Notes under the pieces: generated by a model | Databases searched by the model: none | What the model was told of the DNA's origin: nothing | Seen by the model: the letters and a program-made list of their open reading frames with translations, nothing else | Translations under genes and position numbers: made by a program | Assembly: GCA_963703685.1 (NCBI GenBank) | Contig: CAVPFI010000007.1 | Location: forward strand, 3,662-67,661 | Length of the DNA stretch: 64,000 bases | Origin: an uncultured Acidobacteriaceae bacterium | GTDB taxonomy: Bacteria > Acidobacteriota > Terriglobia > Terriglobales > Acidobacteriaceae | Direction: 5' to 3' | In this document: one piece after another, positions 5,839 to 59,758 of the stretch | Layout: every line of letters starts with the position of its first letter | Position numbering within the stretch: position 1 is the first letter of the stretch

Positions 5839-7182
5839 ATGCCCAACAAGAAAACGAAGTCCAAAACAAGCTCCAACGGCAACCGTCCGCGCAACGGGAC
5901 GTCCCGGTCAAAATCTCCACTTCTCGCAAAGAACGCGAGAAATGGGGCACCCGCGTCTGTTTCTGATGTCCGCACCTACACCATCCCCGATCTCCGCCTC
6001 GAGCAGCCCAACCTCTCCGTCCGCCAAACAATAGAAAAAGACAAAGACGGCGCCGAGCACGTCCGCTACGAAGTCACCGGCAATCTCGACGCGCCAGTCC
6101 CACCGATTCGCGACTCCAAATATCTGAGCAAAGAGCAGGCCATCGAGATCTACCGCTACATGCTGCTCAACCGCAAGATGGAAGTCGCGCTCGAAAATCT
6201 CTACAAGCAGGGCAAAGTCGTCGGCGGAGTTTATTTCGGACTCGGCCAGGAAGCCTGCTCCTGCGCCTCCGCTTACGCGCTCGATAAAGACGACTGGTTT
6301 GCGCCCATGATCCGCAATCAGGGATCGCTGCTGGTCCGCGGCTTCCGCGCCTCGGACACCATGATGCAGTACATGGCCAAGGCCGATTCGCCCACACGCG
6401 GCCGCGACGGCACCTCGCACTTCGGCGACATCGAAAAGCGCAATATGGTCTCGCCCATTTCGATGCTTGGCGATCTCATCCCTGTGCTCTCGGGGGTAGC
6501 TCTCGGCGCGCGTCTCCAGGGACGCAACGTCGCCGTCATGACCTACATCGGCGACGGAGGCCAATCCACCGGCGTCACCTACGAAGGCATCAACTTCGCT
6601 GCCGTGCAGAATCTCGGCCTCGTGCTCTTCGTCGAATCGAATCTCTGGGCTTACTCCACGCCGTCAGAACTGCAGTACCGCTGCAAAGACCTGGCCGAGC
6701 GCGCCATCGGATACGGCATCCCCGGCGTGATCGTCGACGGCACCGATGCCTGCCAGGTCTACGACGCCGCCCGCGCCGCCGTCGAACGCGCCCACCGCGG
6801 CGAAGGTCCCACACTCATCGAAGCAAAAATGATGCGCATGAAAGGCCATGCCATCCACGACGCCGCGGCGTACGTTCCCAAGCCGATGTTCGAATTCTGG
6901 AAGAAGCGCGACCCTATCGCGCGCTTTGAGAATTATCTGGTAAAAGAAAAGAAGTGGCTCACAGCGAAAGAGAATGCGGAATTAATTTCAGAAGTCGAGC
7001 GGGTGATCGAAGCTGAGCGCGAGATCGCGGTGAACTCGCCGATGCCGACGCCGGAATCCGCTGAGGGCGGGGTGTTCTGCGAAGACGGCTGCCATGAGAT
7101 TAAACCGAAGTATGGGATGCCGAAAGTGAAGAAGGGAACGGCTGGGTACAAAGAGACCGAAGCGGCGGTGCATCTGAGATAA
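5839..7182 (+). CDS. 2-oxoacid dehydrogenase E1 component, alpha subunit (TPP-dependent)
   Basis: 447-aa ORF with the TPP-binding region YIGDGGQSTGVTYEGINFAAV...ESN. The N-terminal extension contains the repeat-encoded peptide SKSPLLAKNARNGAP. Substrate (pyruvate, branched-chain or acetoin) is not resolvable by eye. Confidence 0.9.
   Translation: MPNKKTKSKTSSNGNRPRNGTSRSKSPLLAKNARNGAPASVSDVRTYTIPDLRLEQPNLSVRQTIEKDKDGAEHVRYEVTGNLDAPVPPIRDSKYLSKEQAIEIYRYMLLNRKMEVALENLYKQGKVVGGVYFGLGQEACSCASAYALDKDDWFAPMIRNQGSLLVRGFRASDTMMQYMAKADSPTRGRDGTSHFGDIEKRNMVSPISMLGDLIPVLSGVALGARLQGRNVAVMTYIGDGGQSTGVTYEGINFAAVQNLGLVLFVESNLWAYSTPSELQYRCKDLAERAIGYGIPGVIVDGTDACQVYDAARAAVERAHRGEGPTLIEAKMMRMKGHAIHDAAAYVPKPMFEFWKKRDPIARFENYLVKEKKWLTAKENAELISEVERVIEAEREIAVNSPMPTPESAEGGVFCEDGCHEIKPKYGMPKVKKGTAGYKETEAAVHLR
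5907..5952. repeat. Family-A repeat (reverse orientation) inside the E1-alpha N-terminal extension
   Basis: GTCAAAATCTCCACTTCTCGCAAAGAACGCGAGAAATGGGGCACCC is the reverse complement of the GGGTGCCCCA..TCGCG..GCGA..GGGGATTTTGAC type. Confidence 0.7.
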
Positions 7183-10317: not shown

Positions 10318-11694
10318 ATGCCAACTGACATCATCATGCCCCAGATGGGCGAATCCATCGTCGAGGGCACTATTACCAAGTGGCTGAAGAAGCCAGGGGA
10401 CAAAGTCCAGCGCGACGAGCCCCTTTTCGAGATCTCCACCGACAAGGTGGACGCCGAGATTCCCGCGCCCGCCTCCGGCGTCTTGCAGGAAATTAAAGTT
10501 ACCGAAGGTACAACCGTGGGCGTCAACACGATCGTCGGAACCATCGCCGTGGACGGCGAATCCGCTGCCCCTCCCGCGAAGGCCTCCTCTGCGAAGCCGT
10601 CCGACGCCAAGCTTGAAGAAAAAAAGCCTGAAGAGAAAAAGCCCGAGGTAAAAAAGGCGGAAGAGAAAAAATCCGCTCCATCCCCGGCGCCGCCAGCCAC
10701 ATCTGCGTCCGCTCCTCACAAAGACGAAGAGGAAGAAGAAGCCCGCTCTTCGCCGCTCGTCCGCAAAATCGCGCGCGAACATGGAGTAAGTCTGTCCCAA
10801 ATTTCCGGCACCGGCCTCGGCCGCCGCATCACCAAACAAGACATCATGCAGTTCATCGAAAGCCAGGCATCGCAACCCGCCCCAGTGGGGACGGACGCAT
10901 TCGTCCATCCCAGCGAGCGAAGCGAGGCGCCAACAACTCCCGCAGCAGCAGCGCCCGCCGCGCCACGCCCATCCGCTCCCGCGCCTTACCCCGGCGATCT
11001 CGTCCCCATGACGAACATGCGCAAACTGATCGCCAAGCACATGATCGAGTCCCGCCGCACCAGCGCTCACGTGCACTGCATGTATGAAGTGGACTTCACC
11101 CGCATCGTCAATCTGCGTAACAAGCACAAAGCGGGATTCGAGCAGCGCCACGGCGCGCGCCTCACCTTCATGCCCTTCTTCGTGCGCGCCGCCGTCATCG
11201 CCCTTCAGCAGTGGCCCATCATCAACGCTTCCATCGAAGGCGAAAATATTCGCTATCATCGCCAGATCAACATGGGCATCGCGGTCGCTCTCGACTGGGG
11301 CCTGATCGTTCCCGTCCTGAAGAATGCCGGAGACCTGAACTTCCTCGGCCTGCAGCGCGGCATCTCCGATCTCGGCGAGCGCGCCCGCACCAAAAAGCTC
11401 AAGCCCGAGGACGTCGAAGGTTCCACCTTCACCATCACCAACCCCGGTCAGTTCGGCGCCGTGTTTGGCCTTCCCATCATCAACCAGCCGAACTCCGCAA
11501 TCATGGGCGTCGGCGGAATCACCAAGCAGCCCATGGTGATCACCGACAAGGATGGAAACGATTCCATCGCCATTCGTTCCGTCGTCCACCTGACTCTTGG
11601 CTACGATCACCGCCTCATTGACGGCGCCGTCGCCGATCAGTTCATGGCACAGGTAAAGAAGAATCTCGATACCTGGAGCGAAGAAATCGGATAA
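10318..11694 (+). CDS. dihydrolipoamide acyltransferase (E2)
   Basis: Lipoyl domain (EISTDKVDAEIPAP), a KKPEEKK-rich linker, an E3-binding domain (SPLVRKIAREHGVSL..ISGTG..GRITKQDI) and a catalytic domain ending LTLGYDHRLIDGA. Confidence 0.93.
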   Translation: MPTDIIMPQMGESIVEGTITKWLKKPGDKVQRDEPLFEISTDKVDAEIPAPASGVLQEIKVTEGTTVGVNTIVGTIAVDGESAAPPAKASSAKPSDAKLEEKKPEEKKPEVKKAEEKKSAPSPAPPATSASAPHKDEEEEEARSSPLVRKIAREHGVSLSQISGTGLGRRITKQDIMQFIESQASQPAPVGTDAFVHPSERSEAPTTPAAAAPAAPRPSAPAPYPGDLVPMTNMRKLIAKHMIESRRTSAHVHCMYEVDFTRIVNLRNKHKAGFEQRHGARLTFMPFFVRAAVIALQQWPIINASIEGENIRYHRQINMGIAVALDWGLIVPVLKNAGDLNFLGLQRGISDLGERARTKKLKPEDVEGSTFTITNPGQFGAVFGLPIINQPNSAIMGVGGITKQPMVITDKDGNDSIAIRSVVHLTLGYDHRLIDGAVADQFMAQVKKNLDTWSEEIG

Positions 11695-16849: not shown

Positions 16850-17075
16850 CAGTTGTCAGCCATCAGCCTTCAGCTCGACCAAGTCGAATGTTGACTATCA
16901 CGCCCCGCTACAGACTTCTAGCCCACGGCATCACGAAAAAGTAACGCCGTGAGAAATTCCAGCCGCGAAGCGGCGATAGATTACAGCCCACGGCGCAAGC
17001 CGTGGGTGGAGGCAAAGAAGTAACACCACAAGCCCCGGAGGGGCGCAAGAAACAACCTCAGACGCTAACTGACCA
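16850..17075. repeat. cluster of short palindromic host-type repeats inside the phage operon
   Basis: CAGCTTTCAGTTGTCAGCCATCAGCCTTCAGC, hairpin CCCACGGCGCAAGCCGTGGG and AAGCCCCGGAGGGGCGCAAG motifs. Confidence 0.6.
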
Positions 17076-18191: not shown

Positions 18192-18216
18192 AAGAGTTCT
18201 CGGTTCTCAATCGAAT

Positions 18217-18270
18217 GGTTGCCCCACCCTTGTCGCGCTTTTGCGACAGGATGGGGATTTTGACTTTCCT
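18217..18270. repeat. Family-A repeat (GGTTGCCCCACCCTTGTCGCGCTTTTGCGACAGGATGGGGATTTTGAC)
   Basis: Internal hairpin TTGTCGCG/CGCGACAA-like. Copies at 20141, 22611, 27166, 35716, 40751 and 40922. Confidence 0.75.
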
Positions 18271-20094: not shown

Positions 20095-20220
20095 ACCTCT
20101 GTGAGCCCCTGTGCCCTCTGTGGTTAAAATGTTTCCATCTGGGTGCCCCACCCTTGTCGCGCTTTTTGCGACAGAGCCTGCCCTAAGCGAAGTCGAAGGG
20201 GTGGGGATTTTGATCCCCCG
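20095..20220. repeat. composite of a Family-C repeat and a Family-A repeat with an embedded AGCCTGCCCTAAGCGAAGTCGAAGG core
   Basis: CCTCTGTGAGCCCCTGTGCCCTCTGTGGTTAAA, then GGGTGCCCCACCCTTGTCGCGCTTTTTGCGACAG..GGGGTGGGGATTTTGATCCCC. Confidence 0.75.
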
Positions 20221-20232
20221 ACGCCCCGCGCC

Positions 20233-21021
20233 CTAGCCGCTCAACTCAATCCAAGTGTCCTGATACGCCGCCTTGTCCTTCCGCAAAATAGCCGCGCCCG
20301 TAAAAGTCACCTTCATCAATGTCCACACTTTCATTCGCGAATCCGCCACCACCACATCCGTGACTTCGAACGACATTCCCAACTCCCCCGCAGCGAGCGT
20401 ATTTGCACTGGCTCGCAAGGCAAGGGATGCAGGGGTTTCACTCGTACGTCCTCGCATAGTCATCGCCAAATTACGAATGCATTGCACCGCGGACGAAAGC
20501 GAAACTGTCAACCGAATTCCTCCGCGCTCGGTCGCCGCGTGCATCGCCAATCTTCCGCGTGTCCCATCCTTGCGCGCATTTTGCGCAAGAACCTGCCCTG
20601 AGCCCAGCCCGGCCGCATGGCCAGGCCGGATCGAGAGCGTGGGGACCTTGACTTCTTTTCTTTCACTCCGCCGACCCGACTTCTCAATCTCCCCCACGAT
20701 GTCAGGAAAATCCTTCGCGTACAGATATCCGCTAACCTCCAGATTGCGCCCGACCACATCCGCGCTCGTGATCACCCCAATCTTGCGCCGCACATCGTGC
20801 CGGTCAAACGTTGGAGCATAATCCACCGCCATCCCCAGCAACGAAGCCAACGCCGCCTCTGCAGCCCCTTTCGTCAGCACTACCCGTCGTCCGTTCGACC
20901 CCGAAGGCGCCCTCTGCGAGGGCGCATCCACCACCGTCAACACGCCCCGAAACGCCGCCCGGTTCGGATGCCCCTCCACTTCCGGCATCGCCACCGCCAT
21001 ACTCTCCAATGCAATCGTCAT
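20233..21021 (-). CDS. prohead protease/scaffold-like protein (by position), carrying an in-frame repeat insertion
   Basis: 262-aa ORF between portal and scaffold. The central stretch ..PGHAAGLGSGQVLAQNARKDGTRG.. is encoded by the repeat at 20559-20655. Protease catalytic residues could not be verified by eye. Confidence 0.5.
   Translation of the reverse strand: MTIALESMAVAMPEVEGHPNRAAFRGVLTVVDAPSQRAPSGSNGRRVVLTKGAAEAALASLLGMAVDYAPTFDRHDVRRKIGVITSADVVGRNLEVSGYLYAKDFPDIVGEIEKSGRRSERKEVKVPTLSIRPGHAAGLGSGQVLAQNARKDGTRGRLAMHAATERGGIRLTVSLSSAVQCIRNLAMTMRGRTSETPASLALRASANTLAAGELGMSFEVTDVVVADSRMKVWTLMKVTFTGAAILRKDKAAYQDTWIELSG
20559..20655. repeat. composite Family-A repeat inside the protease-like gene
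   Basis: GTGTCCCATCCTTGCGCGCATTTTGCGCAAGAACCTGCCCTGAGCC..hairpin GGCCGCATGGCC..GCGTGGGGACCTTGAC has the same architecture as 20141-20220. Confidence 0.7.
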
Positions 21022-21040
21022 GCAATCCTCATTTCTGTCC

Positions 21041-21143
21041 TGTCATCCTGAGCGAAGCAGACGAGCCGAGAAGGCTCGCCTGCGCAGTCGAAGGATCCCT
21101 ATACCCTTTCATCACACGAAGCCGGGTGGGATTTTGACTTCCC
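21041..21143. repeat. Family-B repeat followed by a Family-A 3' arm
   Basis: TGTCATCCTGAGCGAAGCAGACGAGCC gaga AGGCTCGCCTGCGCAGTCGAAGGATCCCT ... GGGTGGGATTTTGACTTCCC. Confidence 0.75.
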
Positions 21144-21161
21144 TAACTCCCCGCGACGAAC

Positions 21162-22499
21162 TCACGGCGTCCCCAACTCCGGCAACCCCCGCATCCGCCT
21201 CACCTCATTCACCGTCAGCACTCCGTTCTGCAACAGAATCTGCTGGATCTGCACCTCCTCCAGCGGATCCGTCGTATCCACATCCGCAAACACAAACTCC
21301 AGATCGTTCCATCCCAACTTCTTTGCGATCGCATCTCGCGTCAGCGACTCCGCCAGCAATCGCGCCGTCGGCACGATCGCCTGCCGAAACGCCAGGTCAT
21401 TCAATTCCTCCGCGGTGGAGCGATTCACGTCCCGCTCCACCCCGAGATAAAACGGAGGAAGGTCGAAAGCATCGGCGACAACTCGCAGCAGAAATTCCTG
21501 CCACTGCAGTCGTAAGTCTGCATCGGTGCCTCCACCGAACCTCAGTACCTCCGGTTTGCTTTCGGCCGATAGGATGGGCACCTTTCCCGTGCCCTCAATC
21601 TCGTCCTGCCACCACCGGATCAGTCGCTCGTGATGCTCCGGCGTCAAATCCTGCAACCACAGTGCATACTGCACGACGGTATTCGACGCCAGCCGCGAGG
21701 CGTACCGGTGCGCTCCCATAAAAGAATTGATCGTCTCGAACGCCACTTCCAGCCGCCCCAACCCAAACGGCGTATGGGTTCGCGGATTTAGCCGGATGTA
21801 AATCAACTCATCGTCATCCAGCTTGATCTGCGAATTCGCCCCCGATTGATCGTTCACCTGCATGTACCGTTGCGACTGCGGCGACCCATCCCACTCCAGG
21901 TTCATCCGAATCGACGCTCCATCCACCGGCCACAACACCAGCGGCAAGGTTTGTGTGGGGATAGCCGCTGGGGGCCCCATAGCTTGCCCTGAGCTTGTCG
22001 AAGGGTCTCGCCGCTTTTGCGAGACATGGGACTCTTCTCCCGACCGAGGCAAATCAGTTCGATCCCACTCCGGCCGGAGCTGCACTTCAATCGCACCAAA
22101 TCCGCCGACAATAATGTCTTCCAGCACCTGCTCCGCCAACGACCGGAACGAATCATCCGGATTCGGCGCATGAAAGTTATCCGTCAGCAGCCGCACCCGC
22201 TGCGCCCCAGCCGATATCGCCTCCAGCGCATACCCCTGCCGCGGCTGAATCCTCCACCGCATCCCCGCGATGCGATCCTTAATGCAGTTGATCGCCCGTC
22301 GTGCGATCGGTGTCTCCGAAAACCGCCGCAAGTTGTACGGAGTCGGTTTGGGCATCGCATCCGTCAGCGGCCCGTAAGAATTAAAGATCGAAGGCAGCGC
22401 CGAAGTCCGCCGCCTCTTCTCGATTTGCACTGAGGAGCTCCCCGAAGACACTCCCGCCACCCGGCGCCAGGCGCCGCGTACCGCCTCTGTAATTTTCAT
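21162..22499 (-). CDS. phage portal protein, carrying an in-frame repeat insertion
   Basis: 445-aa ORF. Size and position (after the terminase region, before protease/scaffold/capsid) fit a portal. The segment SHVSQKRRDPSTSSGQAMGPP is encoded by the repeat at 21971-22037. Confidence 0.7.
   Translation of the reverse strand: MKITEAVRGAWRRVAGVSSGSSSVQIEKRRRTSALPSIFNSYGPLTDAMPKPTPYNLRRFSETPIARRAINCIKDRIAGMRWRIQPRQGYALEAISAGAQRVRLLTDNFHAPNPDDSFRSLAEQVLEDIIVGGFGAIEVQLRPEWDRTDLPRSGEESHVSQKRRDPSTSSGQAMGPPAAIPTQTLPLVLWPVDGASIRMNLEWDGSPQSQRYMQVNDQSGANSQIKLDDDELIYIRLNPRTHTPFGLGRLEVAFETINSFMGAHRYASRLASNTVVQYALWLQDLTPEHHERLIRWWQDEIEGTGKVPILSAESKPEVLRFGGGTDADLRLQWQEFLLRVVADAFDLPPFYLGVERDVNRSTAEELNDLAFRQAIVPTARLLAESLTRDAIAKKLGWNDLEFVFADVDTTDPLEEVQIQQILLQNGVLTVNEVRRMRGLPELGTP
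21971..22037. repeat. Family-A/CCTGCCCTGAGC composite repeat inside the portal gene
   Basis: GGGGCCCCATAGCTTGCCCTGAGCTTGTCGAAGGGTCTCGCCGCTTTTGCGAGACATGGGACTCTTC. Confidence 0.7.
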
Positions 22500-22523
22500 G
22501 ATTATTTTTTCCTACCCCAACTC

Positions 22524-22665
22524 ACGTAGCGACAGCCGCCTCGGCTGTCCAAAAAGATTGTGTGGCGCGGGCACTCCTGCCCGCGAACTCTATGCATCGA
22601 TAAGTAATGCGGGTGCCCCATCCCTTGTCGCGTCGTTTGCGACAGGGTGGGGATTTTGACTCTCC
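22524..22665. repeat. three adjacent repeats: Family E (GACAGCCGCCTCGGCTGTCC), Family F (TGTGGCGCGGGCACTCCTGCCCGCGA) and Family A
   Basis: Family E copies also at 24521, 35828 and 63407. Family F copy at 17516. Family A as listed above. Confidence 0.75.
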
Positions 22666-22840
22666 CAAACTTCCTCGAAACTCTGCGCTCAGCTTTGCGC
22701 TCGTTCCACGCCAACGAGAAAGGATGCGATCCCCACTCAAAAACACTCCGCAGCATGTGAGCCTTCAGTCAACTCACTCTGTCTTATCTAAGTCACGTCA
22801 TCCTAAGGTAAACGAGGATCTCTGCGCTCGGGCAGCACAG

Positions 22841-23650
22841 TCACGCCCTCAACTCCGTCCGCGCTACCTCCGCAATCCCACTAATCTCCCCCACCCCCAC
22901 AATCCGAATCTTCTCCTCCTCCATCGCGCTCAACGCAAACTGCATAACCTCCTGCGTCCGATCCAACCCGTCATCGACCACCGCCGTCAATCGCGGAGTG
23001 GCCGCAGTCATCAGTTCCATTGCGGAAGCGATCTTCGGATATCGTGCCGCCAGCAGCACCGCAGCATCAACATTCGCCTTCAACGAAACCGCATGAAACA
23101 ACTTAATCTCGTTCCCCACTCGATACCCAAAATCAAACTTGAACGGATCCCCTGGCTTCGTGTAGGGAGCCACCGGCACCGAACTCAGAAACTTCGCCAC
23201 CCCCGCCTGCTCAAATGCATCCCGCATCGCTTCCAAAATACGCCCTCGACCGGTCGGCGCCCTGGCCGGCGAGACTTTGGCCTCATCCACGAAAATCGAG
23301 GCCAGTGTTTCGATCTCTGCAGCCGGCGTCGCCGTCACCACCTGCATCGGTGCGGAAAGCTGAATCACATTCGAAAACGAGTCCTCCATCCTTCTTAAGA
23401 GCATCGCGCGATCCTTGATTTCTCCAACCTCTGCTCGAATCTCACGCAGCAACGCCTCGATCACTTCCACGTCCGCCTGCGGATCCAGACGTTGCACCCG
23501 CTGCCAATCCTTGGCGAAACGAACATCCGCAAGCACCGATCCGTTTGCACCTGCTTCCACCATCAAAACCCCAATATTTACAAACTCCTGCCTGATCGCG
23601 TGAGGCACGTACCGCAGTAGAAAGAACTCGAGTTGCAATTGCTCACCCAT
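22841..23650 (-). CDS. DUF3037-like protein
   Basis: 269 aa. The N-terminus LEFFLLRYVPHAIRQEFVNIGVLMVE matches my recollection of the DUF3037 signature (..RF.P....EF.N.GV..). Same strand as the HipA-like kinase and 61 nt downstream of it. Confidence 0.6.
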   Translation of the reverse strand: MGEQLQLEFFLLRYVPHAIRQEFVNIGVLMVEAGANGSVLADVRFAKDWQRVQRLDPQADVEVIEALLREIRAEVGEIKDRAMLLRRMEDSFSNVIQLSAPMQVVTATPAAEIETLASIFVDEAKVSPARAPTGRGRILEAMRDAFEQAGVAKFLSSVPVAPYTKPGDPFKFDFGYRVGNEIKLFHAVSLKANVDAAVLLAARYPKIASAMELMTAATPRLTAVVDDGLDRTQEVMQFALSAMEEEKIRIVGVGEISGIAEVARTELRA

Positions 23651-23665
23651 TAAGAATTGCTTTTC

Positions 23666-23698
23666 CCCTGTGCGCCTCTGTGTCCTCTGTGATTAAAG
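23666..23698. repeat. Family-C repeat between the kinase and DUF3037 genes
   Basis: CCTGTGCGCCTCTGTGTCCTCTGTGATTAAAGT. Confidence 0.65.
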
Positions 23699-23711
23699 TC
23701 TTTGCTCTTCG

Positions 23712-24515
23712 TCAAGCCTGCTCCGCCCACCCCGGAAACGGCCTCCTCGGCGAAATCCGAAACGCCTCAATCAATTCCCGCACCGTTCCCCTTCGTTCAA
23801 TCAAAGTCCGTGCCAGTTGCTCCAACGCTTCCCACTCCCCTCCGTACCATTCCGGAGGAATCTCTCCCGCCAGCTTCCACACCAACTCCTGTTCCATATT
23901 CTCAACCCGCGACAACCAGGGCTCAAACGATCCCCACCCGCGCACGCCCTCATACACTTCATTCCGCGCATAAACTCCGCGCAGCGGATAATCCGGAAAT
24001 GTCCACTCTCCCGCGTTGAAACAATATCCCTGGTCGATAAATGACGCCGTATACTTCCTTTCCCGAAGCCGCTTCCAAAACGCCGCTTGCCGTCCATTCG
24101 CGTTCCCAGTCCATTTATCCAGCACGAGCATCCCAGAAAACGTCTCCAGATTTCTCACCATCCCCAGCATCTCCACCGGAAGATAATCCAACACCTGCCC
24201 CTCCAGCGGACTCACCACATACCGCGATCCAAATTGTAGTCCCGCCTGGCACCGAATCGTATTGTGCGCTAGTTGAATACTCAGCTCCGGCGTGTGCTCC
24301 ACCAGCCACTCGTCCACCTCCACAACTTCCGTCACCGGAACGGGAAGCCCCGCTCGCTCTGCTAACCGCGTAGCCAGCATCTCATTCGCCAGCACCCGCA
24401 AATGCTGCGGATTATTCCGAAACTTCACCACATAAAAGTTTCCATCCGAGCAGCGCATCAAATGCCCCTGCGCCCCGCCCCGCATCCGCCGCACGTGTTG
24501 TACCGCCTCTACCAA
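23712..24515 (-). CDS. HipA-like Ser/Thr kinase family protein
   Basis: 267 aa. VRRMRGGAQGHLMRCSDGNFYVVKF (Gly-rich loop plus VxK), LVLDKWTGNANGRQ (catalytic-loop-like D...N) and SFIDQGYCF (DxG). TTG start in the track. Confidence 0.6.
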   Translation of the reverse strand: MVEAVQHVRRMRGGAQGHLMRCSDGNFYVVKFRNNPQHLRVLANEMLATRLAERAGLPVPVTEVVEVDEWLVEHTPELSIQLAHNTIRCQAGLQFGSRYVVSPLEGQVLDYLPVEMLGMVRNLETFSGMLVLDKWTGNANGRQAAFWKRLRERKYTASFIDQGYCFNAGEWTFPDYPLRGVYARNEVYEGVRGWGSFEPWLSRVENMEQELVWKLAGEIPPEWYGGEWEALEQLARTLIERRGTVRELIEAFRISPRRPFPGWAEQA

Positions 24516-24863
24516 ATCATCCTACGTAGGGACAGCCGTCTCGGCTGTCCGTCAAGTGCAGCTCGACACTCTCTCCGTTCACAAAGCCCGCCATCTTACC
24601 CCAACCTCGCTGTTTTTCGCTGTGACGTATGAACATCCAATAGTGATATTTCAAGGCTGGTTGGAAATGCGCCGTCAATCCCGCCTATCATGTCGCCTGG
24701 CAATGCTTTTTGGTAAGAAGTCAGAGAACCGCGATCACGCAGTTGCGCGGTTGTTATTACACTATAATTTTTCGGGATTCACAGATCGTTGCGCGTGAAA
24801 CCAGCGCTGGACATTCCGCGCTCGGCTTTCGGAATCATTAAATCCGGGCCTCGAAGAACTTAC

Positions 24864-25615: not shown

Positions 25616-27158
25616 CTACCCCACCACCAAACTCCCCACCTCCACCGTCCTCTTCCGCCCCACCCGCCCCGCATCCTCTCGCCGCACCGCCAGCGCAATC
25701 GCCATCGCCATCACGCAATCGTCATGCGCTCCCTCGGCGGCCGCTCCATGTCCATCGGCATGCCGCACAAATGTCCTAAGCTCTCCTAACAATCGCGGAC
25801 TATGAAACAACTCCGGTTTCTCGATCAGCACTGCCGCCAGGTTCTCGATCATCGCCGGCCGCGTCACCACCGACGTCAGCCATCCCTCCTGCCCGCCCTG
25901 ATGAAAAATGTTCTCGTAATGCAAATCCTTCAAATGCGCCAGCACGCCGTATCCATGATTATTCCGTTCCACCGCCACCAGCGCATTTCCATACTCGTGA
26001 CCGAGCGCCACCACTCGCCGCGCCAGTTCAAACGGAGGAAAATGCCCACGCAACTCCGCACATTGCAGCCCGATCATTCGGTCAATCACCTGCACGCACC
26101 CGTAGTCCCCCTCCGACCCGCCGCCCGACGTGTCCACTCCAATGATGTACTGTCGCTGCCCCCCCAGACTCGGCGGAAGCCACACCAACATCCTTCCATT
26201 ATCCTTGGACTCGAACGGTGGCGACGCTCGCCCCGCGGCCGCGTCAACTGCCTCCATATCAAACACGCATTCTCCCGATGCCAAAAAACAAGACACTGCG
26301 TCTTCCGCATACTCCTGGCCCGCCAGTCCCCGCAGAACCTGCCACCGCGCCCGCCGCCACGCGATCTGTTCATTACTCAGCCCATGCCGCTTCATCAATT
26401 CTTTTTCTTCATCGGTAAACGGAAGCCCGACTTTTTTTCGGAAAATCCTCTTTATAAGACGGCTCATACCACCAGGGAAAAAAGTGTTGCGTGTATCCCG
26501 TCTCCGCCGCCTTTTGCCATTCCTCGTAAAACAATCCCGCCGCCCCATTCGCCGTCGACTCCAGCACAATCTCTCCGTCTGGCACCACCGCCGCCCGCAA
26601 CGACGCCAGCGTTTCCCCGCCGCCACGCGGCCAGCGGGAGACCTCCGAGCAATGTAAATTGTGGATGGTCATCCCGCGGCCCGCATTGTCATCCGCCGTT
26701 TCCACCCGGTACTCGCTGTCGAGTTTTGGAAACACAATCTGGCGGACGTTTGAGCGCGACTTCACCAGCGCTCCTCGATGCACCCGATTGTTGGGCAGTT
26801 TTTCCCAAAATCGATGCACGATGTTAAAAATCGCCTGTGCCGATTCCTCACTGTGCGCCACCTGCACGGTCAACGTCCCCGGCCGCGTAATCGTCTGCAT
26901 GAAATACCGCGCCGCAATATAAGTCGTGATCCCCACTTGCCGTGCCTTCAACACAATGTTCCGCTTGCTGCATCGTCGCGAATACTCCTGCTGCGCCCGG
27001 TTCAACTTCAGATATCTCAATCCGCCCTTCTTGATGCGAATCTTCAGCATCTTCCGGATCAGCAGATCCCGTATCGTCTGCTCCTTCGACCAATGATCCA
27101 GAAACGGCCCGAATTGTTCCACCAACTGAAGATCAGTCCACACAATGCCATCCCTCAA
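25616..27158 (-). CDS. terL: terminase large subunit, interrupted by a frameshift in an A7 run
   Basis: The 249-aa ORF holds the ATPase half (NIVLKARQVGITTY Walker A, ESTANGAAGLFYEEW, HFFPWWYEPSY). The 336-aa ORF holds the nuclease half (IIGVDTSGGGSEGDYG.., HDDCVMAMAIAL). The frames meet at T7/A7 26432-26438; removing one A gives ..KEDFPKKVGLPFTDEEK.. Confidence 0.8.
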
Positions 27159-27165
27159 TTAATCC

Positions 27166-27275
27166 GGGTGCCTCACCCTTGTCGCGTCATTTGCGACAGG
27201 GGTGGGGTTTTGACTTTCCCCGCACCGCCTCGGGTACCCCAGGTCTCGCCGATTTTGCGAGACCTGGGAATCTCG
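27166..27275. repeat. two tandem Family-A repeats upstream of the terminase
   Basis: GGGTGCCTCACCCTTGTCGCGTCATTTGCGACAGGGGTGGGGTTTTGAC and GGGTACCCCAGGTCTCGCCGATTTTGCGAGACCTGGGAATCTCG. Confidence 0.75.
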
Positions 27276-27330: not shown

Positions 27331-28005
27331 CTACTTCAACAATCCCGCCGTAGCCCACCGCGCAATCTTCCCGTGCATATGAATCTGAAGTCCCCCCGTC
27401 GCCCGGTCCAGTCCCGCATTCCCCGTCTTCGCAGTTAACGTCGCATTAAACGAAGAGACAAATTCCCTCGCCGTCAACGGCATTTGAGGCTGCCCCATCC
27501 TGGCCGCGTTCTTTGCGGCTACGGTGGGAGTCTCAGCCTTCCCACTCACCAGCGGCACGATCGCCGCCAGCGATTGCACCTCCGACAGCACGATCCCCAC
27601 CACGGCCGTCACCTTAGCCTGCGTCGCCGCATCCTGAATGTGCAGCGCCGGCAACAATCCTTGCAGACTAGCCTGCACCGCTCCTATCGCCGCCTGAATC
27701 TGATTGAGAATTCCCGGCTGCGCCGTCGCATCCGCTTTCTGATACGCCGCAATCAGCGACTGCACCAGCTGCAGATCCGCTCCCGCCTGCGTCCCCGCTT
27801 TCTGAATCGTTTCTAAATCTGCCGCTGAAACACTCTTCCCTTGCAGCGCCGCCACCAGCGTAATAATATTTGCCGCTGCCGGAATCAGCGCCGCCACAAT
27901 CTGCTCTGCCTCTCCAATCCACGCCGTCGAACATCCGCCCAGGGTAATCGTCAGGCACAACACCAGCGCCAAAGCCACTTTCACCAAAGTAAAGTTATTC
28001 TTCAT
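27331..28005 (-). CDS. lipoprotein, alpha-helical and Ala/Gln-rich, containing an in-frame Family-A repeat
   Basis: MKNNFTLVKVALALVLCLTITLGGC has a lipobox (ATG at 28005, GGAGG RBS). The peptide VAAKNAARMGQP is encoded by the repeat at 27488-27538. Confidence 0.65.
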   Translation of the reverse strand: MKNNFTLVKVALALVLCLTITLGGCSTAWIGEAEQIVAALIPAAANIITLVAALQGKSVSAADLETIQKAGTQAGADLQLVQSLIAAYQKADATAQPGILNQIQAAIGAVQASLQGLLPALHIQDAATQAKVTAVVGIVLSEVQSLAAIVPLVSGKAETPTVAAKNAARMGQPQMPLTAREFVSSFNATLTAKTGNAGLDRATGGLQIHMHGKIARWATAGLLK

Positions 28006-28162
28006 ATCGATTCCTCCATGTAATTTTTCGATCGTTCTCTTAACTCGCAAATACACTCCAGCGCCGTGACCGAAATTCAGTCACCGCCGGGACAAGCCTG
28101 AATTATTTTGGGATCGCCCTGCCGCTAAGAACTGCTAACTCTAGAGTCGTTTGTCTTGATAG

Positions 28163-40712: not shown

Positions 40713-40988
40713 CCCCGTCCTGTATCGCCTCTCGCGGGTGCCGCCCGTCTGGGTGCCCCATTTCTCGCGTCCTTTGCGAGAAGTGGGGACTTTCGTCCGC
40801 GGCCCCACCCAAACCGCCACCGCCGATTCTCGTCGCACCGTTCCGCCCTCATTCTACGGTATCGTTCACACTCATCAGAGAAACGTCAGTACTCGCGCCG
40901 CTCTTCCCCCAGCCTGTGGCCGGGTACCCCATCCTAGCCGCGTCCTTGGCGGCTAGGGTGCCGACTTTCATCGGTCCATTCCAAACGC

Positions 40989-53441: not shown

Positions 53442-53840
53442 TTAACGGCGTCTCTTGCCTTTCTTCCCCGCTTTTTTCGCAGCTTTCTTCGCGGGACGCT
53501 TCGCCGCTTTTTTCTTCGCGGTTTTCTTGGCAGCCTTCTTTTTCGCAGGCTTCTTCGCTGCTTTTTTCTTCGCAGGCTTTTTGGCCGCCTTCTTTTTCGC
53601 GCTGGGCTTGCTGCCGCCACCTCCGCCGCTTGGGGCGGACGGCGCGGGTTTGGGCTTGGGGGCAGGAGGCGGCGGAACGCTGATGGATGCCGGCGTGCTG
53701 CCTTCGGGAGCCGGTGTACCGGACTCTTCTTCCTCCTCCTCTTCTTCGAAATCTTCTTCCAGCGACTCGCTGTAAGCGCCGCTGTCGCCGAATTCCTCTT
53801 CTTCATCACGTGCGTACAGCGTGGGATCGTAGAACGTCAT
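53442..53840 (-). CDS. histone-H1-like / AKP-repeat lysine-rich protein with an acidic N-terminal half
   Basis: 132 aa. An EEEFGDSG..EEDFEEEEEEEE block, a Pro-rich linker, then seven or more KKAAKKPAKKKAA-type repeats. Confidence 0.7.
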   Translation of the reverse strand: MTFYDPTLYARDEEEEFGDSGAYSESLEEDFEEEEEEEESGTPAPEGSTPASISVPPPPAPKPKPAPSAPSGGGGGSKPSAKKKAAKKPAKKKAAKKPAKKKAAKKTAKKKAAKRPAKKAAKKAGKKGKRRR

Positions 53841-57504: not shown

Positions 57505-57657
57505 GTGGATCTCCTTGCGGAAAAGACGTGCCAGTGTAGCAGAGTCGGCGGCGACGCAAAGCGACTTAATCCAGAGCAACGATCGTCCGAAGCGACGGTC
57601 GCATGTAAAATTACTTGTCGACGATCTTCGTGCGAGATTTGCGAATCCCAGAACTTT

Positions 57658-58628
57658 ATGAAAGCCATTCAAGTGAAACAACCTGGCGGGCCGGAGGCGA
57701 TGGAACTAGTCGACTTGCCGGTTCCGCAGCCGAAGGCAAATGAGGCGGTAGTGAAGCTGTCCGCTTCGGGCGTCAACTTTATCGATGTATACGTTCGGGA
57801 AGGGCGCTATAAAGCGCTCACGCCATTTGTGCTGGGGCAGGAGGGAGCGGGCGTCGTCAACGCCGTGGGCGCCGACGTCACGTCGGTTAAAAATGGCGAT
57901 CGCGTCGCCTGGGCCGGCGTCTTGGGATCGTACGCGGAATATGCGGCCGTGCCCGCGGACCGTCTGGTGCCCATTCCTGACGGCGTCACCGACCAGCAAG
58001 CGGCAGCGGCCATGTTGCAAGGCATGACCGCGCACTATCTCTCGCATGACACGTATCCCTTGAAGCGCGGCGAAACGGCGCTGGTGCACGCCGCCGCCGG
58101 CGGCGTAGGACTGCTGCTGGTGCAGATGGCGCACACAATATTGGCGCGCGCGTGATTGCCACGGTCTCGACCGACGAGAAAGCGAAGCTGGCGCGCGAGG
58201 CGGGGGCGGACGAAATCATTCTCTATACAAAAACGGACTTCGAAGCTGAGACAAAGAGGATTACCGGCGGCAAGGGCGTCGACGTCGTTTACGACTCGGT
58301 GGGCAAGACCACTTTCGAGAAGGGCCTCAACGTTCTGCGCCCGCGCGGCATGATGGCCTTGTTCGGCGGATCGAGCGGCGCGGTGCCTCCGTTTGATCCG
58401 ATGGTGCTGGCGCAAAAGGGATCGCTTTACGTGACGCGGCCCACGCTGGTGGCCTACATCGCAACGCGGGAGGAATTGGTCGCGCGATCCGGCGCAGTGT
58501 TCGCCATGATTGCGGCCGGCAAACTTAAGCTACGGATCGAACACATCTATCCGCTGGCCGAAGTGCAGCGGGCGCATCGCGATCTGGAAGGACGAAAGAC
58601 GACTGGGAAGTTGCTGCTGATTCCGTAG
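57658..58628 (+). CDS. qor: NADPH:quinone oxidoreductase (zeta-crystallin/MDR family), copy 1, with a 2-nt frameshift
   Basis: [21 protein letters not shown]...[16 protein letters not shown], then the frame breaks at AATATT (58137-58142) and resumes as [25 protein letters not shown]... Removing one AT restores alignment with copy 2. Confidence 0.75.
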
Positions 58629-58761: not shown

Positions 58762-58786
58762 ATGCTGTGTTCGCAGAAGGAACACT

Positions 58787-59758
58787 ATGAAAGCCATTCG
58801 CGTGCAACACACCGGCGGCCCCGAGGTCATGGAACTCGTCGAGCTTCCCGACGCCGCAGCCGAAACCCACCGAGGCAGTGGTGAAAGTCTCCGTTGCCGG
58901 GGTGAACTCGATTGATGGCCACTTCCGCGATGGAAGCCTGCGGACGCCGCTGCCGTTTATTCCCGGCCAGGAAGGCGCGGGAGTGGTGACGGCAGTAGGC
59001 ACGCAAGGCGAAGGCGGTGAAAGTCGGCGACCGTGTGGCGTGGAGCGGGACGCTCGGATCCTACGCCGAATACGTGGCAGCGGCGGCAGACAGCTTGGTG
59101 CCGGTTCCGGACGAAGTGACCGACCAGCAAGCCGCCGCCGCAATGATGCACGGCCTGACCGCGCACTATCTGGTGAACGATGCGCACAAACTGAAAGCGG
59201 GCGAAACCGCTCTGGTGCACGCAGCTGCGGGCGGCGTTGGACTTCTGTTGGTGCAAATGGCGCGCATCATCGGAGCCCGCGTGATCGGCACGGCCTCCAG
59301 CGAAGAGAAAGCTGGACTGGCGCGGGAAGCAGGCGCGGACGAAGTCATCGTCTTCACCCAGCAGGATTTTGAACCCGAAGTAAAGCGCCTGACCGGCGGC
59401 GCGGGCGTCGACGTGGTGTACGACGGCGTGGGCAAAGCGACGTTCGAGAAAAATCTAAATGTCCTGCGCCCGCGCGGCATGCTCGTGCTCTATGGCATGT
59501 CGAGCGGTCCGGTGCCGCCGGTGGATCCCGCCAAGTTGTCGGAGAAAGGTTCGCTCTACATGGCGCGCACTACGCTGGCGCACTTCACCGCGACGCGCGA
59601 GGAACTGCTGGCGCGCACGAGCGCGCTGTTTGCCATGATCGCTGAAGGCAAGCTCAAGCTGCGGATCGCAAAAACTTATCCACTGGCCGAAGCGCCGCAG
59701 GCCCACCGCGACATGGAAGCGCGCAAGACTCGCTGGGAAACTGCTGCTGGTTCCGTGA
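58787..59758 (+). pseudogene. qor: NADPH:quinone oxidoreductase, copy 2, with three 1-nt frameshifts
   Basis: Alignment to copy 1 needs frame changes at CCC 58847-58849 (..VELP / TPQPKPTEAVVKV), at GG 59016-59017 (..GTQGEG / VKVGDRVAW) and near 59731-59734 (..EARKT. / GKLLLVP*). Confidence 0.7.

Follow-up and report, generated by a model that had tools for sequence, protein, structure and literature searches.

In-frame copies of short palindromic repeats lie within two adjacent genes of a phage-derived gene cluster in an uncultured Acidobacteriaceae bacterium: the HK97-type portal gene and the gene that follows it in the head module (the second gene, below). Both genes are part of a 64,000-nt stretch of contig CAVPFI010000007.1 (assembly GCA_963703685.1), analysed at its full length and referred to here as the window. 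We consider it probable that these segments are selfish elements resembling repetitive extragenic palindromes (REPs), which build up at two permissive sites, where selection keeps only copies that leave an open reading frame (ORF). An earlier note on this stretch had reported the repeats in both genes with their sequences and peptides; all were recovered as quoted, and both ORFs are open. The result is an unusually well-replicated new example of a known phenomenon, in-frame selfish palindromes, in a soil acidobacterium.

The portal gene and its hypervariable loop

A scan of one genome per species returned at least 582 relatives with a portal, 80 of which were retrieved, all metagenome-assembled genomes (MAGs) of Terriglobia (loci L001–L080); with the portal of the window itself (WIN), this gave 81 portals for comparison. 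Beyond its Pfam match (Table 1), the window portal scored below the cut-off of TIGR01537 (54.8 vs 112), and PHROG portal profiles matched it in two stretches, broken at ~aa 150–188 around the insert. It has >5000 homologues; the best 120 are 78–100% identical and 406–488 aa long, with internal length variation confined to one site, between GAIEVQ and PLVLWPVDG, and identity across the 80 related genomes is 65–95%. Comparison with portals lacking the insert, as proposed in the earlier note, found a 7-aa loop (xTGDxxR) at this site in 61 of the 81, and loops of 28–65 aa in the remaining 20. Every one of the 81 loops has a length divisible by three, and no portal is interrupted by a stop or a frameshift, in keeping with the earlier suggestion that surviving copies preserve the frame. 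The possibility that homologous portals of unrelated phages simply share this segment was rejected, as it is absent from most orthologues.

Similarity between the coding segments and the dispersed repeats exceeded chance by a wide margin. In local alignments against 14 intergenic copies, the segments of the portal gene, the second gene and a lipoprotein gene scored 49, 50 and 48, respectively, compared with 17–19 ± 2.5 for 500 dinucleotide shuffles, none of which reached these values (>12 standard deviations above shuffles); control coding segments aligned at chance level, and chance similarity was rejected on these scores. When the portal gene was compared by blastn-short with 1.6 Mb of related loci in which portal and second-gene sequences had been masked, it matched elsewhere only at gene nt 469–531 (window 21969–22031).

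A survey of 200 loops pooled from proteins and loci comprised 90 short and 110 expanded loops, the latter with 94 distinct sequences. The short loop is the ancestral state. Expanded loops are built from translated GTAG-REPs, the repeats H and P (families described below) and other repeats. The shortest of them (24–26 aa) read LxPxWxxAxELRSAGQPRAAVPTQxL, which is one in-frame GTAG-REP in antisense (..ELRSAGQPRAAVPTQ..), and the extra modules of longer loops sit between RSA(E) and (A)GQPRAAVPTQ. Among these modules, H reads NPH[VF]SQ..R.MGHP and P reads PSTSSGQA, the latter flanking the H hairpin on one side in WIN and L001 and on the other in L003 and L008; others are a second H, D7 (TTEDTERHRGSQ) and another hairpin (HPTKTALGGAP). 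The composite in the window loop is 91% identical to 27242–27273 by repeat search, and carries P on the opposite side of the hairpin from the intergenic composite at 20137–20220. The probable REP relic beside it has a counterpart that is intact in relatives as GQPRAAVPTQ; the window loop has lost part of the REP, and the closely related L002 has H without P. Close relatives that differ by single modules imply separate gain and loss events at one portal site, and orthologues differing by the whole insert or by single modules bear out the proposal that the elements enter coding DNA.

The loop is probably a turn between two beta strands, as suggested by a weak alignment with the portal of the Rhodobacter capsulatus gene transfer agent (RcGTA); sequence and profile searches of PDB with the portal gave weak matches only (6TBA, E 0.12–1.6; 9LBN, E 0.08). 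A second, N-terminal site of the portal (window aa ~18–27) is also length-variable in alignment, and two genomes carry a full H there, at codons ~24–44 (L021 10079–10132; L023 1712–1762).

The linker of the second gene

Conserved N-terminal (aa 1–118) and C-terminal (aa 214–262) domains of the second protein are joined by a linker that ranges from ~5 to 126 aa. The modules of the composite in this linker run arm, hairpin, P/S, arm, which is the order of the intergenic composite at 20137–20220, so that the shared architecture noticed earlier holds; 46 nt of the two align at ~83% identity across the same junction of H hairpin and P. This copy is the more diverged, with one match in related loci (gene nt 419–449), and its sense strand has a folding energy of −54.4 kcal/mol (z −4.4). 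Among homologues 80% identical to the second protein, P0129 is without the composite and P0127 is without the nested S-like part only, which again implies separate gain or loss events. Further homologues carry plain H in two other frames (KIPTLSQKRDKDGAP; KSPLLAKSARNGAP).

No match to the second protein was found in Pfam, PHROGs, NCBIfam or PADLOC; short alleles from relatives likewise had no match in Pfam, PHROGs or NCBIfam, nor by tblastn against 50,697 phage genomes, and neither long nor short alleles matched the profile of an HK97-type prohead protease (Peptidase S78/U35). As no family matched, the label 'protease-like' reflects gene order alone. The protein contains DRHD, GMSYE and TFTGAA, motifs that are reminiscent of S78 proteases. 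In several MAGs (L001, L003, L015, L026, L037, L063 and L072) the frame of the second gene changes between tblastn segments; these changes may be assembly indels or real disruptions in a repeat-rich linker.

Table 1. Positions of the repeats and of the genes that contain them, in window coordinates. R1, covariance model of H.
Feature	Position	Strand	Basis
HK97-type portal gene, 445 aa	21162–22499	−	PF04860 Phage_portal, 161 bits vs cut-off 39.1, E 5e-47
Hypervariable portal loop, aa 141–185, 45 aa here	21945–22079	−	alignments; 7 aa in most relatives
Probable GTAG-REP relic GTGGGGATAGCCGCT, encodes ..AAIPTQ	21955–21969	+	suggested by loop series and intergenic Q copies
Composite in portal loop, read antisense to the gene, encodes SHVSQKRRDPSTSSGQAMGPP	21970–22034	+	alignment, R1
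Portal composite, H 5' arm GGGGGCCCCATAG	21970–21982	+	module parse
Portal composite, P CTTGCCCTGAGCTTGTCGAAGG	21983–22004	+	module parse
Portal composite, H hairpin	22005–22025	+	module parse, R1 E 0.007
Portal composite, H 3' arm	22026–22034	+	module parse
Second head-module gene, 262 aa, 'protease-like' by position only	20233–21021	−	gene order
Composite in linker of second gene, encodes ..KVPTLSIRPGHAAGLGSGQVLAQNARKDGTRG	20559–20655	+	alignment to intergenic composite
Linker composite, H 5' arm	20559–20569	+	module parse
Linker composite, H hairpin	20570–20589	+	module parse
Linker composite, P/S-like module with its own hairpin	20590–20639	+	module parse
Linker composite, H 3' arm	20640–20655	+	module parse
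Intergenic reference composite (H with nested P)	20137–20220	+	repeat search, R1 core match
D7-type repeat just before the reference composite	20096–20128	+	repeat search
Intergenic S (TGTCATCCTGAGCGAAG-hairpin-GCAGTCGAAGGATCCC) and truncated H 3' arm, between portal and second gene	21040–21139	+	repeat search
Intergenic H just upstream of portal	22608–22664	+	sequence; 63 bits by construction
Intergenic H between 335-aa gene and adaptor gene	18214–18268	+	sequence; 54 bits by construction
H in frame in linker of lipoprotein ORF 27331–28056 (−)	27485–27539	+	R1 36 bits, E 5e-8, copy outside the training set
H antisense in N-terminal extension of E1-alpha ORF 5839–7182 (+)	5905–5955	−	repeat search

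The repeat families

The families H, P, S, Q and D7 of the window were delimited by repeat finding and motif scans. H consists of GGGTGCCCCA, a stem, a GCG nnn TTTGCG loop, a stem and TGGGGATTTTGA (43–61 nt), and has 11 copies in the window, full-length and composite together. P is GCCTGCCCTGAGCGAAGTCGAAGGGG (CCTGAGC..TCGAAGG type), and S is TGTCATCCTGAGCGAAGC, a variable hairpin and GCAGTCGAAGGATCCC, i.e. P enclosing a hairpin. Q is GTAG-GGACAGCCG-nnn-CGGCTGTCC, a classical GTAG-tagged REP with intergenic copies at 22524–22550 and 24524–24550, and D7 is CCTCTGTG..CCTCTGTGTCCTCTGTGG. Where the window has a truncated H 3' arm between portal and second gene, spacer comparison found a full H in L001 and L002.

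The H covariance model (R1) was trained on eight window copies described as intergenic, among which are 22608–22664, 18214–18268 and the E1-alpha copy at 5905–5955; R1 recovers its training copies at 50–68 bits, scores that hold by construction. It scored the hairpin core of the intergenic composite (20154–20174) at E 0.003, close to the value for the portal hairpin (Table 1). In 1.55 Mb from the 80 related genomes, R1 had 109 matches at the cut-off of E < 1e-3, 88 of them outside recognised cluster genes. The consensus hairpin has 13 pairs, with 92% of cells paired and compensatory changes at 10 pairs, and covariation amounted to 171 double-change cells vs 47 ± 6 in shuffles: H is a selected hairpin, with stem sequences that differ among subfamilies. 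Its 5'-arm motif (10 nt, with one mismatch allowed, so that the counts include some chance matches) has a density of about one per 4 kb in the clade of the window and is ~7 times rarer in sister clades.

Like REPs, H is a short, imperfectly palindromic stem-loop, as is Q (9-bp stem, by inspection), and H is present in high copy, mainly between genes. The GTAG/CGTC tetranucleotide tag of REPs is absent from H, which starts with GGGTGCCCCA, and is present in Q, whose motif occurs in 35 antisense copies and 1 sense copy. Inverted pairing as in REP doublets forming hairpins (REPINs) is not the arrangement here: 107 of the 109 H matches share an orientation, and the sole inverted pair is at L080 13614–13718. 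[quoted passage not shown] None of H, P and S matches a family of Rfam 15, at the gathering threshold or at E ≤ 1; a full-text literature search with the motif strings found unrelated primers only, and a literature search found no description of these Acidobacteria repeat families or of the portal hot spot.

An Acido-Lenti-1 RNA (RF01687, 48–52 bits) lies within the cluster, in sense orientation, in the window (16961–17006, −), L012 (15273–15318) and L080 (11356–11403), in the same spacer in the first two and in a different one (portal to second gene) in L080. This RNA behaves like one more dispersed small hairpin element.

Coding copies outside the phage-derived genes

Two further coding copies had been claimed. 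The one in the lipoprotein gene was recovered by R1 (Table 1); the linker in which it lies is variable, the close relative L002 is without the H signature there, and the same process appears to be at work in this linker of a non-phage gene. For the copy in the E1-alpha gene the H sequence stands, being 93% complementary over 43 nt to 40751–40793 independently of R1 (its R1 score of 63.6 bits holds by construction, because the copy is in the training set). Its coding status is less firm: it lies in an N-terminal extension, and its peptide SKSPLLAKNARNGAP in the ORF translation is predicted only. According to Di Nocera et al. 2013 (PMC3733652), N-terminal REPs are often probably extragenic.

Reading frame, selection and the host cluster

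The cluster is a fixed chromosomal locus (window 12806–39556, −), syntenic in nearly all of the 80 species-level genomes. Its order is hipA-like, DUF3037, portal, second gene, 147-aa coiled-coil protein, 335-aa protein and head-tail adaptor, followed by proteins of 157, 189, 364 and 811 aa; the terminase and large upstream genes lie on one side, and a convergent 2-oxoacid dehydrogenase E2 gene on the other (59–74 of 80 loci). Pairwise ratios of non-synonymous to synonymous substitution rates (dN/dS) were 0.05–0.3 for all cluster genes tested. For the portal, the ratio of non-synonymous to synonymous differences (pN/pS), computed for one pair (window vs L001), was 0.62 in the loop and 0.05 in the rest of the gene. 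The cluster is under purifying selection, and the portal loop is near-neutral.

Coding copies of H were concentrated in few places: 19 of the 109 matches were coding, 17 in the portal (15 in the loop, 2 near the N-terminus) and 2 in the second gene, with no match in the other nine conserved cluster genes of the 80 genomes. The lengths of intergenic H units (43–81 nt) fall into the three classes modulo three as 38/26/26, and those of coding units as 12/5/2, an enrichment for multiples of three. The suggestion that the elements have an intrinsically frame-compatible length is not supported by the intergenic copies, nor is that of a single reading frame, as coding copies use all three antisense frames (NPH..MGHP in the portal; KIPT..DGT and KSPLLAK..NGAP in the second gene). 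The harm to the virion that the earlier note had expected is not apparent either: the genes are under strong purifying selection except at the two sites that hold the inserts, which are hypervariable and near-neutral. These patterns point to near-neutral passengers in functional genes that have passed a strong filter of survivorship.

In the window, the gene of the large terminase subunit (TerL; 25616–27158, −) is split into overlapping ORFs for the ATPase part (26409–27158) and the nuclease part (25616–26626), by a frameshift at an A7 run near 26426–26442; most related loci have a single ORF of ~500 aa. Sequencing error and genuine inactivation are the two possible causes of the frameshift. 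Many of the MAGs carry the label MFD and are probably long-read assemblies, in which indel errors at homopolymers are common. The HipA-like kinase and DUF3037 genes (window 22841–24515, −) correspond to a candidate defence pair of PADLOC, PDC-M66A/B (E 6e-7 and 8e-10), and this candidate pair lies between terminase and portal in nearly all 80 genomes. The conservation of the cluster as a whole suggests that it is a vertically inherited, possibly gene transfer agent (GTA)-like, phage-derived element. A literature search found no paper on a conserved phage-derived cluster of Terriglobia, and the one brought to light here is worth its own study.

Probable accumulation and filtering of selfish repeats

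In the explanation that we favour, the segments would be copies of high-copy, REP-like selfish hairpin elements (H, P, S, Q and others) of this Terriglobia lineage, arriving by transposition in trans or by non-allelic gene conversion. Arrivals would tend toward existing hairpin copies, landing in or beside them and so producing nested composites. Those in coding DNA would almost all be purged, and would be kept only where extra unstructured residues are tolerated and the net length keeps the frame, that is, in one loop of the portal and in the inter-domain linker of the next gene. A first REP in the portal loop may have served as a landing pad for growth and turnover in the order REP, H, P, along with deletions, the encoded peptide being a near-neutral passenger and the genes remaining functional.

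Several observations weigh against this explanation or complicate it. A crude regular-expression scan of 1.6 Mb of related loci found no Y1 transposase resembling the REP-associated tyrosine transposases (RAYTs), a negative that is uninformative, as these loci are not whole genomes. The spacers of close genomes are too diverged and rearranged for their alignments to define any target-site duplication or exact pair of empty and filled intergenic sites, and the P-in-H junctions of the portal loop show no duplication either. In the lipoprotein gene, H apparently replaces sequence instead of adding to it, which favours gene conversion over simple insertion. Expanded portal alleles share the modified start LxPxW, and no remnant of TGD was seen by eye in the loops inspected. 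In a rough neighbour-joining tree, the 7-aa alleles of L012, L015, L016 and L025 fall among expanded ones, a pattern that needs allelic recombination or repeated events, and allelic recombination or gene conversion probably contributes to the portal-loop alleles. Finally, AlphaFold2 models had predicted local distance difference test (pLDDT) scores of 34 for the portal (24-sequence alignment) and 36 for the second protein (50 sequences), too low to map either site.

Orientation of the repeats and alternative explanations

All repeat families are almost wholly antisense to the cluster genes, with antisense:sense motif counts in the clade of the window of 131:3, 82:6, 79:1, 21:1 and 93:0; the few sense-oriented matches are chance, one inverted pair or the E1-alpha copy, where the gene also runs the opposite way. 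In 60 of 90 non-coding and 11 of 19 coding copies, ATTTTGAC(T)TT comes after the hairpin on the H strand. Folding of that strand is favoured by U-G wobbles (58 at two pairs), and among the terminator-like sites of 19 kb the H copy at 27170–27208 ranks first. Sense copies could terminate transcription of the operon and be purged, an idea that would account for the bias without any function of the elements.

Two functional alternatives draw on this pattern. The more elaborate, which we regard as possible but unlikely, is that H copies are orientation-dependent insulators that terminate antisense transcription and are tolerated or favoured only in antisense, also within coding sequence, that their repeated capture in the portal loop reflects hairpin-targeted insertion and not survivorship alone, and that the cluster (TerL, PDC-M66 pair, portal and other genes) is a GTA-like particle system of Terriglobia, hitherto undescribed and inherited vertically, whose long residence is recorded by the repeats of its host. 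The simpler, that the elements have been recruited as intrinsic terminators against antisense transcription (the hairpin and T-run of the H strand) or as sites of mRNA processing or pausing that adjust expression in the cluster, with the coding copies retained for such a role in RNA or DNA, is in our judgement distinctly unlikely. It would accommodate the antisense bias of H (107 of 109) and of the other families, the flipped orientation of the sole H copy in a region where genes run the other way, the wobbles, the terminator-like site, the retention of the T-run, and the presence of an element in every spacer of the window's head module. However, the portal insert is missing from 61 of 81 species, whose spacers are largely without H as well, so that the elements can be dispensed with; the orientation is explained equally well if terminating copies in sense orientation are purged; and for the second-gene composite it is the sense strand that folds better, so that the strand argument is not uniform.

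Alternatively, loop and linker might be under diversifying selection in the host, for escape from defence or for particle properties, with the repeats as raw material for recombination. The 94 distinct sequences among 110 expanded loops, the intermixing of 7-aa and expanded alleles in the tree, suggestive of allele exchange, and the candidate defence pair PDC-M66 adjoining the portal could all be read in this way. We find it very doubtful, since pN/pS of the loop, at 0.62, is below 1, the variation consists of selfish-repeat modules of the same kind as the intergenic ones, and the 7-aa loop is unchanged in most lineages. That portal and second gene are pseudogenes of a decaying prophage, in which insertions are neutral and open frames coincidental, is highly improbable and already largely refuted: the split TerL, the second-gene frame changes in a few MAGs and the near-neutral loop would agree with it, but the cluster keeps its position beside the 2-oxoacid dehydrogenase E2 gene in 59–74 of 80 genomes, dN/dS is low in all genes tested, all 81 portals are intact, and TerL is a single ORF in most loci, with the window frameshift at an A7 run.

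Comparison with known systems and significance

Accumulation of selfish repeats under a frame filter has a close parallel in Rickettsia palindromic elements (RPEs), reportedly described by Ogata and colleagues in 2000 as in-frame palindromic repeats in functional genes. Like these, the repeats studied here are palindromic and selfish, lie both between genes and in frame within ORFs that are kept open and conserved, and add peptide. The portal site may likewise be surface-exposed and structurally permissive, for which the hypervariable loop between conserved strand-like segments, the weak RcGTA alignment and the relaxed pN/pS are indirect indications. Unlike RPEs, a Rickettsia family of ~100–150 bp, H is 43–61 nt long, differs in sequence and belongs to another phylum, and several unrelated families stack here in one hot spot. 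Both intragenic REPs and RPEs are documented (PMC3733652), and Di Nocera et al. 2013 described GTAG/CGTC REP clusters that encode 20–82 aa inside ORFs, G-T pairs in REP stems, and a location between co-directional ORFs (PMC3733652). Q in the portal loop, read in antisense as GQPRAAVPT, fits the sequence definition of GTAG REPs. In contrast, H is untagged, almost never forms inverted pairs and lies antisense to flanking genes, and the host gene is a phage-derived portal instead of a repair or replication gene.

MITEs of Coxiella burnetii are also said to sit inside ORFs. They differ from the present repeats in being longer and in having terminal inverted repeats; the repeats of the window showed neither ends of this kind nor target duplications. 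A paper on novel MITEs of C. burnetii addresses what they imply for protein and small-RNA evolution (PMC5896051). As for the host genes, the head module of RcGTA (Bardy et al. 2020, PMC7296036) likewise belongs to a phage-derived cluster that is fixed in the chromosome, inherited vertically and equipped with an HK97-type portal, to which the present portal is weakly similar (6TBA, E 0.12). Unlike RcGTA, the Terriglobia cluster is known from its genes alone, its gene content is mostly unrecognisable, and it has a candidate defence pair between terminase and portal.

The roughly 100 distinct alleles offer a natural series of stepwise colonisation of coding DNA by hairpin repeats (REP, H, P), with growth restricted to permissive sites of otherwise strongly constrained proteins. 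The repeat peptides NPHFSQ..MGHP, PSTSSGQA, GQPRAAVPTQ and TEDTE.HRG account for much of the length variation and for many odd 'hypothetical' segments in Acidobacteria proteins, and flag insertion-tolerant sites in the portal and its neighbouring protein.

Other features of the window

Just upstream of the portal, an 84-aa ORF (22502–22756, −) overlaps both the H copy at 22608–22664 and the Q copy at 22524–22550; as it is conserved in almost no locus, it is probably translated repeats and not a gene. Low-complexity coding repeats outside the families described above occur in a periodic run of ~150 nt at 53473–53619 (TTCTTCGC..) and as AAGCCTGAAGAGAAA units in the E2 linker (10609–10668). Elsewhere, two adjacent paralogous segments, 57651–58430 and 58780–59559, ~1.13 kb apart and 70–79% identical, suggest a tandem gene duplication.

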